From positions 1 through 51,473 of the forward strand of contig JBHHUP010000005.1 in the NCBI GenBank assembly GCA_046753845.1: a stretch of 51,473 nt of DNA. Reading direction: 5' to 3'. Below the pieces are notes generated by a model. That model was not told where the DNA came from and did not search any database. It saw only the letters and a list, made by a program, of their open reading frames with translations. The position numbers and the translations under genes were made by a program. This stretch comes from Thermodesulfobacteriota bacterium. Its GTDB lineage: Bacteria > Desulfobacterota > GWC2-55-46 > JADFVP01. Below are positions 12,319-17,743 of the stretch, piece by piece. Positions within the stretch are counted from its first letter, which is position 1. The number at the start of each line of letters is the position of its first letter.

Positions 12319-13521
12319 TTAAAACTTCAGGACCTGCCTGATATAAGATGTGACGTTTCTCTTAATCTCGCTCATGGAATCACCGCCGAACTTTTCAAGA
12401 AAGGCGCAGGCAATGGTAAAGGCCACAACGGCCTCGGCAACAACAGTGGCCGCCGGAAGGGCGCATATATCAGATCTTTCCACACCTGCCTTTATAGTCT
12501 TTCCCGTAAGGATATCCACGGAGCGAAGGGGCTTGTAAAGGGTTGGTATGGGCTTCATCACCGCCCGCAGCAGAATGGTCTCACCGTTAGATGTGCCGCC
12601 CTCTATGCCCCCTGCGTTATTAGTCCTTCTGTAGTAAGGGTGATTCTCCGGCCAGAAATAAGGGGGAGTGTTTTTTTCAGGTTTTCTAAAAAATATCTCA
12701 TCATGAACCTCTGAGCCGGGACGAAAGCCATCTTCAAAACCAAGCCCAACCTCAACGCCTTTCATGGCCTGAATGCTCATAAGGGAGCCTGCGAGGCGGC
12801 CGTCAAGTTTTCTATCCCACTGCACGTGGCTTCCAAGCCCGGGAGGCACCCCTGTAACGGCTACCTTATACACACCGCCAAGGCTGTCTCCGGCGGCCTT
12901 GGCCTCGTCAATACGTTTTTTCATCTTTTCCGTAGTAGTACACCCGGGGCACCTTACAACAGACCTCTCGGCCTTCTCGAATAGCTTCTTCGGGTCCAGC
13001 TTCTTCGGGGCCTTCCAAGAGACGCCGCCAAGGGTCTCTACCCAGCTGTAGACATTTATTCCAAACTCCTCAAGGAGCCTTCTCGCCGCCGCTCCAACGG
13101 CAACCCTTGTGGCCGTCTCACGGGCGCTTGAACGCTCGAGGATATTCCTGAGATCACGGTGCCCGTATTTGAGCCCCCCGGCAAGGTCGGCGTGACCGGG
13201 CCTCGGCTCTGTAAGGACCTTTGTATTAATGCCTTTTAAGGGGCCGTCAGGACCCATAACACCCTGCCAGTTCTCCCAGTCGCGGTTGTTTATTACCATG
13301 GTAAGGGGCGAGCCAAGGGTAAAACCGCCGCGAAGCCCGGAGGTCACGTCTACGCGGTCGCTCTCTATGGCCATACGGCCGCCGCGTCCGTAACCGCCCT
13401 GACGCCTCTTCAGCTCCCTGTCTATAAAGGCGCTGCCAAGGCGAAGCCCCGCGGGAAGCCCCTCAAGTATGGCCGTAAGATTTTTTCCATGGGACTCACC
13501 TGCGTTCAGATACCTTAACAT
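12319..13521 (-). CDS. aroC: Chorismate synthase
   Basis: AGESHG, RRQGGYGRGGR, PRPGHAD, ERSSARET, TNNAGGIEGG, MKPIPTL, ERSD; AAGGAGG SD upstream. Confidence 0.97.
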   Translation of the reverse strand: MLRYLNAGESHGKNLTAILEGLPAGLRLGSAFIDRELKRRQGGYGRGGRMAIESDRVDVTSGLRGGFTLGSPLTMVINNRDWENWQGVMGPDGPLKGINTKVLTEPRPGHADLAGGLKYGHRDLRNILERSSARETATRVAVGAAARRLLEEFGINVYSWVETLGGVSWKAPKKLDPKKLFEKAERSVVRCPGCTTTEKMKKRIDEAKAAGDSLGGVYKVAVTGVPPGLGSHVQWDRKLDGRLAGSLMSIQAMKGVEVGLGFEDGFRPGSEVHDEIFFRKPEKNTPPYFWPENHPYYRRTNNAGGIEGGTSNGETILLRAVMKPIPTLYKPLRSVDILTGKTIKAGVERSDICALPAATVVAEAVVAFTIACAFLEKFGGDSMSEIKRNVTSYIRQVLKF

Positions 13522-13732: not shown

Positions 13733-14134
13733 CTATTTTTTCACCACCGGTCCGCCGGCCTTTACCCAAGCCGCATAACCGCCGTCCAGTGCCTTTACTC
13801 TTCTAAAACCCGCCTTCATGAGATAGAGCGCAGCACCTGCGCTCGATGCCTCATGGGGTCACGTACAGTAAGTGACTATCTCCGTGCCCATGGGGAGCTC
13901 AAACATACGGGCCTCAAGGTCATCGGGGGCAATGCGTTTATCACCCTTTATCCGTGTATCCATGGCCTCATAAGCACCCTTTGAACGGATATCAAGTATG
14001 AGTATCTTCTTTCCGGCCTTCATATCGGCCATCACTTCCTCAGGAGTAACCCTTACAACGTCCTGAATGGTAACGGCGGAGGCGAAGGTAGAGATACCAA
14101 ATACAAGAACAAGAGCGAGTATTATTTTTTTCAT
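13733..14134 (-). CDS. Exported rhodanese-domain selenoprotein (133 aa; Sec at codon 92, UGA 13859-13861)
   Basis: Signal peptide MKKIILALVLVFGISTFASA; rhodanese motifs ILDIR and IKG. Reading through TGA gives EIVTYCT-U-PHEASSAGAALYLMKAGFRRVKALDGGYAAWVKAGGPVVKK-TAG, which completes the rhodanese fold. A SECIS-like hairpin lies directly 3' of the UGA. Confidence 0.88.
13817..13855 (-). promoter_or_regulatory. Bacterial SECIS element
   Basis: mRNA after UGA: CCC CAUGAG GCAUC GAGCGCAG GUG CUGCGCUC UAU CUCAUG. Lower stem 6 bp, internal loop, upper stem 8 bp, G-starting apical loop about 21-22 nt from the UGA. Confidence 0.82.
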
Positions 14135-14273
14135 ATATTAATGCCTCCTTCGAATTATAATGGCACATTATCACACAATTGTCCTTAAAAATCAAAGGGC
14201 CTGAGAGTACATTTAGAGGTTACTGCTTATTTTATATGTGGTATGAGGTGAGAAAATCCTCTATAATACGGAG

Positions 14274-14522
14274 ATGGAAAAAATAGATGCAAAAAGAAGG
14301 CTTGACGCCAGAGGCATGTCGTGCCCAATGCCATCGGTAAAGACGGCCCTTGAACTTGAGGGTATGCAGACGGGCGAGGTCTTAGAGGTCATTACTGACG
14401 ACCCTGTATCAAAGACAGACCTGCCCATCTGGGCGCGGGCCTCGGGCAACACCGTACTCGCCATAAGCGAAGAGGCCCTTGAGGGCCGAGACTCCATTAC
14501 CATTTATGTGCAGAAGGGGTAG
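14274..14522 (+). CDS. TusA/SirA-family sulfur carrier protein
   Basis: LDARGMSCPMP, GEVLEVITDDP.S..DLP.W; 82 aa. Confidence 0.92.
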   Translation: MEKIDAKRRLDARGMSCPMPSVKTALELEGMQTGEVLEVITDDPVSKTDLPIWARASGNTVLAISEEALEGRDSITIYVQKG

Positions 14523-14525
14523 GGG

Positions 14526-15293
14526 TTGAGCGAGAGACTGTACCACCTGAACCTTACAAAAGAAGATATTGAGGGGGCCACCGTGGCCCTTATGCCCGGG
14601 GACCCGGCAAGGGCAGGTAAGATAGCCCTTGAGGTATCACGTTCATACTGCTCTACGGCTACGGAGCTTGCCTTAAAACGGGAGTTCACCACCTTCATAG
14701 TCCCAACGGATGATGCCCCCGTTATAGTAACCTCAACAGGCATAGGCGGCCCCTCTGTATCCATCGCCATAGAAGAGCTCGCACGCATCGGTATCCGCAC
14801 CTTTATACGCGTCGGCACAACAGGGGCCATTCAGGATTACCTTAAAAACGGCGACTGCGTCATCACCACGGGAGCCGTACGCCTTGACGGGGCCTCACGG
14901 CATTACGCCCCCCTATCATACCCCGCCGTAGCGAGTCTTCGCGTAACAAACGCCCTTGTAGCAGGGGCCGAGATGGCCGAAGTTCCATTTCATACAGGTA
15001 TTACCGCCTCATCGGATACCTTTTATCAGGGCGAGGAAAAAGCCGAGTCATTTAGAAAATACGCCATAAAGGATATAAGAGGCTCAACAGAAGAGTGGCG
15101 CATGCTCCATGTCCTTAATTACGAGATGGAGTCGGCAACCCTTCTTACGGCAACGGCCTCAATGGGCCTTGAGGGCGGCTGCGTTACAGGGGTCATCAAC
15201 GGCGCCGAGAGCGGCAATATAACGGCCGAGGTCCTCGCAAGAGGCGAGGCGAATGTCATAAAGGCCGCGACAGCGGCCCTGCGTTTTTTATAA
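14526..15293 (+). CDS. udp: Uridine phosphorylase-like nucleoside phosphorylase (NP-I family)
   Basis: YHLNL, MPGDP.R, REFTT, STGIGGPS.SIA.EELA, RVGTTGAIQ, AVRLDGAS.HYAP, ASSDTFY, NYEMESATLL. Confidence 0.85.
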   Translation: MSERLYHLNLTKEDIEGATVALMPGDPARAGKIALEVSRSYCSTATELALKREFTTFIVPTDDAPVIVTSTGIGGPSVSIAIEELARIGIRTFIRVGTTGAIQDYLKNGDCVITTGAVRLDGASRHYAPLSYPAVASLRVTNALVAGAEMAEVPFHTGITASSDTFYQGEEKAESFRKYAIKDIRGSTEEWRMLHVLNYEMESATLLTATASMGLEGGCVTGVINGAESGNITAEVLARGEANVIKAATAALRFL

Positions 15294-15325: not shown

Positions 15326-15838
15326 GTGATCATGAATAAATCCACGAAAAAATACCTGCTGCCGCTCCTTATCCTATTTATCTTAATATCAGGATGCGCA
15401 CCCGTCATATCACGGCCCGTGCTAAATGAGGTGGACAAGAGACTTACATTCGCCGAGATAAAAAAAGACCCCTCGGCCCACGGTAAAGCCATTGCGCTCC
15501 TTGGCGGCAAGGTCATAAAGGTTACAAACATAAAAGACGGAACCCTCGTCGAGGTACTGCAATCTCCGCTGGCGCGCAACCTGAAACCACTGCCCGAGAA
15601 GAGGTCAGAGGGCCGCTTCCTCATCCATTTCAAGGGTTTTATCGACCCCCTCGTATACATGGATAAGCTCATTACCGTGGCCGGCCAACTAACCGACCCC
15701 CTTACAAGGCCGATTAACAGGAGGGATTACACCTACCCCGTTATCAAGGTAAAAGAACATTACCTCTGGCGCATGGGCCATGACAACTCCCCTCCCGTGA
15801 GTTTCGGCATAGGCCTCGGGCTCTCAGGCGGATTCTGA
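15326..15838 (+). CDS. Slp-family outer-membrane lipoprotein
   Basis: Lipobox LISGC; LGGKVI...N....T.VEVLQ.PL, SEGRFL, GFIDP, ITVAG, YTYPVI, terminal FGIGLG. Confidence 0.88.
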   Translation: MIMNKSTKKYLLPLLILFILISGCAPVISRPVLNEVDKRLTFAEIKKDPSAHGKAIALLGGKVIKVTNIKDGTLVEVLQSPLARNLKPLPEKRSEGRFLIHFKGFIDPLVYMDKLITVAGQLTDPLTRPINRRDYTYPVIKVKEHYLWRMGHDNSPPVSFGIGLGLSGGF

Positions 15839-17086: not shown

Positions 17087-17743
17087 TTAAATTCCCTCTA
17101 CGGCCTCGCGCATCTGCCTTATAGTATCACTGTAGGAAGGCGTCTTGAATATACCCGAGCCCGCCACGACCACGTCAGCTCCGGCAAGAGCCACCTCTGC
17201 GATATTATCTACCTTTATGCCGCCGTCTACCTCAAGCTCCGTAGAGAGGCAGCGCTCTTTTATAATGGAGCGCACTTCTGTTATCTTCTTTAGAGCGCCG
17301 TGGATAAAGCTCTGTCCGCCAAACCCCGGGTTGACGCTCATAACAAGAACAAGGTCAAGGTCATCGATAATATCATGAAGCGCACTTACCGGGGTTGCGG
17401 GGTTAATGGATACGCCTGCCCGCGCGCCGCTGGCCTTTATTAGCTGAACCGTACCGTGCAGGTGCCGCGTGGCCTCGGCGTGTACGGTTATGATACCTGC
17501 GCCGGCCTCTGCGAACTCGGGAACATAACGCTCTGGCTCCTCTATCATAAGATGCACGTCAAGGGGCACTGTGGCAACAGACTTCAGGGCCTTTACCACA
17601 AAGGGGCCTATGGTGATATTAGAGACAAAACGGCCGTCCATTACGTCTACATGGAGGTAATCTGCACCGGCCTCGGTAACGGCCCGCACCTCCTCGGAGA
17701 GCCTGGTAAAGTCCGCCGAGAGCATTGATGGTGATATCTTCAT
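17087..17743 (-). CDS. rpe: Ribulose-phosphate 3-epimerase
   Basis: SPSMLSADF, HVDVMDG.FV.NITIG, DVHLMI, MSVNPGFGGQSF, EVDGG, VAGS. Confidence 0.97.
   Translation of the reverse strand: MKISPSMLSADFTRLSEEVRAVTEAGADYLHVDVMDGRFVSNITIGPFVVKALKSVATVPLDVHLMIEEPERYVPEFAEAGAGIITVHAEATRHLHGTVQLIKASGARAGVSINPATPVSALHDIIDDLDLVLVMSVNPGFGGQSFIHGALKKITEVRSIIKERCLSTELEVDGGIKVDNIAEVALAGADVVVAGSGIFKTPSYSDTIRQMREAVEGI

Follow-up and report, generated by a model that had tools for sequence, protein, structure and literature searches.

In sulfur oxidizers, TusA's CPXP-motif cysteine acts as the sulfur carrier, and rhd, tusA and dsrE2 have been described as a syntenic sulfur-transfer set (PMC11094781). Rhodanese-like selenoproteins with a CxU motif are already catalogued, as "form 3" in PMC13188914 and as "COG0607 form 2" in PMC9312934, and the Sud protein of Wolinella succinogenes is reported to be periplasmic (PMC4288042). 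On the tRNA side, the TusA relay is described as dispensable in many species, with a CxxC-C, Fe-S subtype of MnmA in existence, and TudS as turning 2- or 4-thiouracil into uracil (PMC8584467), while SelU makes Se2U from s2U (PMC9312934). In the uridine phosphorylase (Udp) of Escherichia coli, uracil is read by a network made up of Gln166, Arg168 and Arg223, and this Gln166 enzyme already cleaves 2-thiouridine well (PMC5238616).

Here, we report on the window, a stretch of 51,473 nucleotides from a Thermodesulfobacteriota bacterium (contig JBHHUP010000005.1, assembly GCA_046753845.1), in which genes for a selenocysteine (Sec)-containing rhodanese, a TusA and a variant Udp are neighbors (Table 1). 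A first-pass annotation of this DNA had described a 139-bp divergent spacer (14135-14273) between the rhodanese gene and tusA, a CPMP motif in TusA and a gap of 3 nt from the tusA stop to the udp start. This layout, coordinates included, was confirmed on the sequence. All three gene identities also hold: Pfam scans returned Rhodanese (across the TGA), TusA and PNP_UDP_1, and the phosphorylase passed NF008383. The gene order is aroC<-rhodanese followed by tusA->udp->slp->HDOD and rpe<-. The locus was compared across 41 genomes, namely the window's own assembly (1.56 Mb, 66% complete) and 40 relatives, the close ones being metagenome-assembled genomes (MAGs) labelled Deltaproteobacteria or Thermodesulfobacteriota. 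Most of the set consists of fragmented MAGs, in which contig ends cut several rpe or upstream links; related genomes are not independent, and the synteny counts given below are not a statistical test. The best explanation, to which we assign a probability of about 0.7, is that the trio is what remains of two divergent operons joined by the loss of intervening genes, the products of which likely work separately.

Table 1. Coordinates of the features discussed (positions in the window, or in loci of relatives where a locus name precedes them)
Feature	Position	Strand	Remark
Rhodanese selenoprotein gene	14134-13733	-	133 aa with TGA read as Sec92
tusA	14274-14522	+	82 aa, CPMP, Cys17; Pfam TusA
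udp	14526-15293	+	TTG start, 255 aa; uridine phosphorylase, Glu166 subfamily
Slp-family lipoprotein gene	15326-15838	+	32 nt past udp; background neighbor
aroC	12319-13521	-	Anchors the ancestral locus on its left in the window's family
rpe (ribulose-phosphate 3-epimerase)	17087-17743	-	Named by sequence recognition; most widespread udp neighbor
In-frame TGA, Sec92	13859-13861	-	Same position in homologues
SECIS-like hairpin	13826-13844	-	8 pairs, 3-nt loop, within coding sequence
Sigma70-like rhodanese promoter	14167-14195	-	TTGATT-17-GATAAT, TG before -10; inferred
TATAAT	14262-14267	+	6 nt before tusA ATG; inferred
Codons E170-E171-K172	15033-15041	+	E. coli Q166-E167-R168; base-binding site changed
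G226	15201-15203	+	E. coli R223; Gly unique to this genome (220 rows)
cheR-kinase-rhodanese rows	L102:8978-13144, L103:4633-8937, L104:4258-8589, L114:276-4621, L117:5244-9736, L119:5168-8001

The Sec-rhodanese and the divergent spacer

The active-site loop of the rhodanese reads YCTUP, with Cys90 two residues ahead of the Sec. The Pfam Rhodanese match (E value, 2.7e-12) runs across the in-frame TGA, which was found at the identical place in all 18 homologues read. The SECIS-like hairpin starts at base 18, counted from the T of TGA. Its pairing was kept in 97% (97.2%) of 144 cells, compared with 26 to 61% for slid controls, and in 8 cells both partners differed, by A-U/C-G changes that fall at synonymous positions. 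None of 500 shuffles reached the pairing score, a generous control given that the structure was derived from these same, related sequences. The own assembly contains selA, as do 34 of the 41 genomes overall, and selD and tRNA-Sec accompanied selA in each of three same-genus genomes searched (G001, G003 and G006); selD and tRNA-Sec were not found in the own, 66%-complete assembly. As the TGA position and the paired hairpin are kept and Sec machinery is present, the Sec reading goes beyond chance. Each of the features expected of a bacterial selenoprotein (a conserved UGA at a Cys-like site, a SECIS hairpin and Sec machinery) was found, and the identification as a selenoprotein is well supported.

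The best NCBIfam model for the rhodanese was NF041203, matched over the full model (E value, 2.6e-26), with a score of 91.8 bits that lies below the curated cut-off of 115. The CxU motif of that family is present, and by sequence the protein would work like NF041203 proteins without being filed as a member. Residues 1 to 20 consist of a basic start and a hydrophobic core followed by ASA|VT, the maximum 11-residue hydropathy being 3.41, and similar N termini occur in the 16 aligned homologues (one start uncertain). The rhodanese is thus likely exported, with a cleavage site predicted by rule; TusA and Udp carry no export signal. Sud (PDB 1QXN) was the last of 17 weak sequence matches to the rhodanese (E value, 3.3e-4).

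Outside the window, the same genome encodes a second Sec-rhodanese (C18:16962-17291; loop YCTUT) that lacks a signal (hydropathy, 0.55) and, judged by topology, would be a better partner for TusA than the window's rhodanese. In one relative (G021, L102:12728-13144), the rhodanese gene contains two in-frame TGAs in a Y-U-T-U-P loop, both residues of which may be Sec.

Within the window's genus, the spacer retains the putative rhodanese promoter and the TATAAT of tusA with a variable block between them. Promoter and terminator scan hits occurred at chance level, and the rhodanese promoter is supported by conservation. Both hexamer regions of the rhodanese promoter are largely conserved in the genus, and TATAAT (once TATACT) is kept 6 to 7 nt before the tusA ATG in all nine same-genus genomes, with no conserved Shine-Dalgarno sequence ahead of tusA in these nine. 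A leaderless start of tusA-udp-slp is possible; across the genome, leaderless sites showed no excess at 6 to 7 nt (13 and 5 of 1,722 starts versus about 10 per position). The arrangement would fit two separate promoters. A partial inverted repeat, ATAATG-GCA-CATTAT, lies at positions 14155-14173 over the -10/start region of the rhodanese promoter, is partly conserved in the genus and could be an operator or a pair of overlapping divergent -10 elements. In view of the conserved elements and this repeat, the spacer may provide shared regulation. Downstream, tusA and udp likely share one transcript, having been inherited as members of one operon, and slp likely shares a transcript with udp.

TusA and the Glu166 subfamily of uridine phosphorylases

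TusA scored 79.7 bits against PF01206 (cut-off, 28.6), and C17-P18-M19-P20 was invariant in 33 of 33 sequences. It is the paralog placed after dsrE2 in relatives and falls under the NCBIfam cut-offs for YedF and YeeD (49.5 < 79, 27.3 < 110 and 17.3 < 147.5); the YeeE/YedE transporter (PF04143) was over cut-off in none of five genomes. Within the genus, in which dsrE2 was not found, tusA has been under purifying selection (dN of 0.10 to 0.19 and dS of 0.83 to 1.33 over six pairs), and so TusA presumably has a partner. Purifying selection on udp and on the rhodanese gene was similar. The other TusA adjoins genes that by recognition are sulfite-reductase-like, ThiS-like, CysM-like, Mec-like and MoeB-like. 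TusA domains also occur within open frames of 830 to 870 aa (G016:C161, G017:C74 and G035:C4), which we presume may be CoA-disulfide reductase-rhodanese-TusA-DsrE fusions.

The Udp passed NF008383 (294 bits; cut-off, 262), fell short of TIGR01718 (267 versus 280.3) and is 51% identical to E. coli Udp. Its predicted structure (pLDDT, 90) has the NP-I fold, and the best 50 structure matches of the model were all uridine phosphorylases. The residues that bind phosphate and ribose are unchanged (H8, G26, R30, R48, R91, T94, E196, M197 and E198 in E. coli numbering). In contrast, the uracil-reading triad is replaced throughout, by Glu, Lys and Gly (Q166 to E170, R168 to K172 and R223 to G226), and one residue is missing before N222, which bears out the earlier description of a variant udp. 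The missing residue is next to the C5 pocket, which in E. coli is presumably lined by I220 and V221.

Of 220 rows of homologues, drawn from loci and from proteins with duplicates included, 192 had Glu166 together with the deletion before Asn222, 27 had Gln166 at the E. coli spacing and 1 was cut; the 184 distinct sequences divided into 157 and 27, respectively. Lys168 occurred in 35 rows and, among loci, was confined to the window's genus. The Glu166 subfamily is narrow, as 150 representatives at 50% identity, 113 of them readable at the site, included 78 with Gln and only 8 with Glu, 2 of these with a GEER motif. Outside the relatives, it was found in Brocadiae (anammox), a Nitrospirota and Gemmatimonadota; no tusA match was detected in the fetched flanks of these udp genes. 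Trees suggested a separate origin of Glu166 in Gemmatimonadota, a reading that we set aside because an AU test (43 rows, 27 of them with E, run after taking out the trait columns) keeps one clade (P = 0.71). As one clade was not rejected, the covariation of Glu166 and the deletion is counted as a single event. In the Gemmatimonadota proteins (L069, L071, L074 and L090; udp at about 4001-4750 in L069, L071 and L090 and at 3129-3875 in L074), D160 is changed to Ala, and R223 is Leu, Ile or Val in three of the four.

This Udp is likely a pyrimidine ribonucleoside phosphorylase feeding pentose metabolism, and Glu166 may shift its base preference. Glu166 would hold the N3-H contact and drop the donor to O2, suiting S or NH2 at C2; if protonated, it could mimic Gln. 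Trimeric purine nucleoside phosphorylases read 6-oxopurines with Glu and Asn. Purine specificity of the variant is nevertheless unlikely, as it retains the insert for pyrimidine specificity and all 41 genomes encode a further PF01048 protein, the sequence of which is likely of MTAP type. The own assembly also has an MTAP-like phosphorylase gene followed by a PfkB-like kinase gene (G000:C6:27565-29381; names by recognition), likely a separate nucleoside salvage pair. Searches of open-access literature brought up no title or abstract on a tusA-udp operon or a Q166E Udp.

Gene order in relatives and alternative readings

Across the 41 genomes, this udp was found in 30 (31 matches minus one dropped at 22% identity; two are fragments at contig ends), this tusA paralog in 24 and dsrE2 in 12. 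The tight trio occurs in 10, comprising all 9 genomes of the window's genus (g1) and its sister G011, and these group at 99% in a GyrB tree that sampled 35 of the 41 genomes and 6 of the 10. The neighborhood, conservation of which the first-pass annotation had proposed to check, is thus tight over one genus plus a sister. Contigs from four hydrothermal-vent runs showed no other letters in tusA or udp; these runs belong to a single sample, which may be where this DNA came from, and are not independent.

Relatives carry a longer locus. Its left arm reads aroC<-(mcp, regulator)<-rhodanese<-hybrid histidine kinase<-cheR and its right arm (P-type ATPase)->dsrE2->tusA->udp->slp...rpe<-, the P-type ATPase gene being present ahead of dsrE2 in some relatives only. 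The aroC anchor of G010 is placed as in the window, and in six relatives (G010, G012, G021, G025, G030 and G040) the rhodanese gene lies downstream of the cheR-kinase genes on the same strand. The gap between the rhodanese gene and tusA is 4.9 to 7.9 kb in G010, G021 and G025 and 785 bp in G009, an intermediate in which dsrE2 lies between (rhodanese<->dsrE2-tusA-udp). Many subsets survive: dsrE2-tusA without adjoining udp (udp missing in G010, G012, G025 and G034 and elsewhere in G017 and G022), tusA with neither dsrE2 nor udp (G014), the ATPase gene directly followed by udp (G030 and G040), and tusA-udp without dsrE2 (genus g1, G011 and G019). Given the longer locus and these subsets, the window is likely a deleted form. 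No orthologue of the kinase, cheR, ATPase or dsrE2 genes was found in the window's own genome (best matches of 27 to 39%, partial).

Under the two-operon reading, the CxU loop of the rhodanese would act on sulfane sulfur or in thiol redox beyond the cytoplasm, like periplasmic Sud, with a historical tie to the cheR-kinase signalling operon. TusA would carry persulfide in the cytoplasm, as in dsrE2-tusA pairs, and Udp would convert a uridine-like nucleoside and phosphate to the base and ribose-1-phosphate for pentose metabolism, its base preference possibly altered by Glu166. The row of cheR, a hybrid histidine kinase with sCache, HAMP and PAS domains and the likely exported Sec-rhodanese, often followed by a response regulator, is a possible periplasmic sulfur/redox sensing unit.

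Where tusA and udp are both present they adjoin in 17 of 19 genomes, and Glu166 was found in all 28 tusA-adjacent loci read; both observations, like the purifying selection on tusA, count against a mere collapse of the locus. The adjacency occurs in G019 on one side of the deepest GyrB split and in families f1/f8 on the other, and the pair survived at least two losses of dsrE2. Each of the 12 dsrE2 genes detected has this tusA directly after it. Measured against all udp genomes, tusA directly precedes udp in 17 of 30 (three families); as a control for background synteny, 20 of the 30 (five families) have rpe no more than 7 kb from udp, four of them at 40 to 85 bp on the same strand. Among 80 udp loci, 22 have tusA alongside, all from the window's lineage. 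The three-way neighborhood, for which a coincidental linkage had been allowed earlier, is likely a product of gene loss; tusA-udp is a real pair. Two side observations concern this pair. Two contigs of one MAG (L042 and L096) each carry tusA-udp, one udp being broken N-terminally, the result of either duplication or bin contamination. In G019 (L111:3476-6900), sat and a PAPS-reductase gene are found close to tusA-udp, and an opposite-strand fxsA lies between them.

In one alternative, tusA and the Glu166 udp form a unit of two genes that deals with thio-modified pyrimidine nucleosides released by tRNA turnover, and the rhodanese is a bystander. Udp would free 2- or 4-thiouracil (possibly 5-substituted), TudS would desulfurate it and TusA would capture the persulfide. 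This is unlikely. Against the 17-of-19 adjacency stand 11 of 30 udp genomes without such a tusA (contig ends cut 2 of these), and no anammox udp locus had tusA nearby. The change affects the residue described as reading O2/N3 (Q166), with the deletion by the C5 pocket; however, the cleavage of 2-thiouridine reported for the Gln166 enzyme (PMC5238616) means that a special enzyme is unneeded. A TudS-family gene is present in 36 of 41 genomes, the window's own included, but elsewhere in the genome, next to purM/purN where seen. MnmA was found in four of five genomes searched. It carries PNPCxxCN in the three loci read. In G006, whose locus alone was long enough to show this, it lies behind iscS-iscU-like genes, and in G003 behind an iscU-like gene (names by recognition); it is likely of the CxxC-C, Fe-S type. 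Upp was not over cut-off in any of five genomes, so that re-entry of uracil is not evident; ThiI was likewise not over cut-off in five, and a search for uridine kinase gave weak PF00485 matches only. A preference of the variant Udp for thio-uridines would be a minority reading. The broader proposal, that the Glu166 subfamily is specialized for thio-, C2- or C5-modified tRNA uridines and co-expressed with a sulfur-recapturing TusA in this order, seems to us rather improbable.

Doubtful to a greater degree is the idea that the rhodanese and TusA are survivors of a membrane-spanning relay of the rhd-tusA-dsrE2 type, retained at one divergent promoter for co-regulation, with udp a passenger. G009 does show rhodanese<->dsrE2-tusA, the rhodanese gene stayed near tusA in g1, G009 and G011 despite loss of the kinase and cheR genes, and the three genes belong to a set described as syntenic. 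However, the rhodaneses described in PMC11094781 carry CRXGC[R/T] and belong to cytoplasmic systems, in contrast to the CTUP loop and likely signal peptide found here, and dsrE2 was not found in any of the nine g1 genomes. Neither DsrA nor YeeE/YedE was over cut-off in five genomes each. Psr was rejected as a rhodanese partner, since the NrfD gene of the single locus read does not belong to Psr; we take the locus to be an alternative-complex-III-like cluster.

The single system for selenium/sulfur trafficking or seleno-pyrimidine salvage that had originally been proposed is very improbable: the tight trio in 10 genomes, purifying selection on all three genes and selA in 34 of 41 genomes would agree with it, but dsrE2-tusA-udp is kept in three 100%-complete genomes (G028, G032 and G038) without Sec-rhodanese or selA (G028 also without selD and tRNA-Sec), which largely refutes it, Sec is a catalytic-loop residue rather than cargo, the rhodanese is likely exported and belongs to a cheR-kinase operon in the six relatives while TusA and Udp are signal-less, TusA is below the YedF and YeeD cut-offs, and MnmH/SelU was over cut-off in none of the 41 genomes (control over cut-off in 1 of 14), leaving no sign of selenouridine to salvage. 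What stands of the proposal is the conserved neighborhood and the tusA-udp pair, without a three-gene module.

The three-gene system thus likely does not exist, and the trio is a clear case of gene loss making conserved neighbors. Worth keeping is a natural Udp subfamily that replaces a residue described as central to uracil recognition. A new base specificity, if shown, would help with annotation, with tracing what becomes of modified tRNA nucleosides and with nucleoside biocatalysis; if the link between thio-uridines and TusA were true, it would be the first from nucleoside salvage back to persulfide trafficking. A side lead is the link between a likely exported Sec-rhodanese and a CheR-kinase signalling operon.

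Comparison with described systems

The rhodanese shares with the CxU rhodanese-like selenoproteins of NF041203 a single rhodanese domain and a C-x-U loop, and differs in its sub-cut-off score, its YCTUP sequence, its likely export signal and the cheR-kinase linkage seen in relatives. Sud of W. succinogenes likewise has a single rhodanese domain, and export of the window's protein is likely, a working analogy only. Unlike Sud, the window's rhodanese has a Sec loop, and no polysulfide reductase was identified in its genus.

The rhd-tusA-dsrE2 cluster of Allochromatium vinosum and sHdr organisms, as described in PMC11094781, resembles the longer locus, in which a CPxP TusA follows a DsrE2-type gene in 12 relatives with the rhodanese nearby. 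In contrast to that cluster, no dsrE2 was found in the window's genus, the rhodanese gene is divergent, contains Sec and likely encodes an exported protein, and udp follows. No DsrA was over cut-off in five genomes here. With the E. coli IscS-TusA-TusBCD-TusE-MnmA relay, the locus has in common the TusA fold and CPxP motif, and MnmA occurs in these genomes; however, MnmA here is of the PNPCxxCN form, follows iscS-iscU in G006 and is not encoded at the locus.

With regard to modified pyrimidines, the MnmH/SelU gene treated in PMC9312934 was not found in the 41 genomes. The TudS-family gene is shared with the thiouracil salvage described in PMC8584467 and lies away from the window's locus. Finally, the window's Udp has the same fold as E. 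coli Udp (NF008383; PDB 1RXC), with a Foldseek TM score of about 0.9. Q166E, the residue fewer before N222 and a shorter loop after it distinguish the whole subfamily from the E. coli enzyme, whereas R168K is specific to the genus and R223G to the window's genome.
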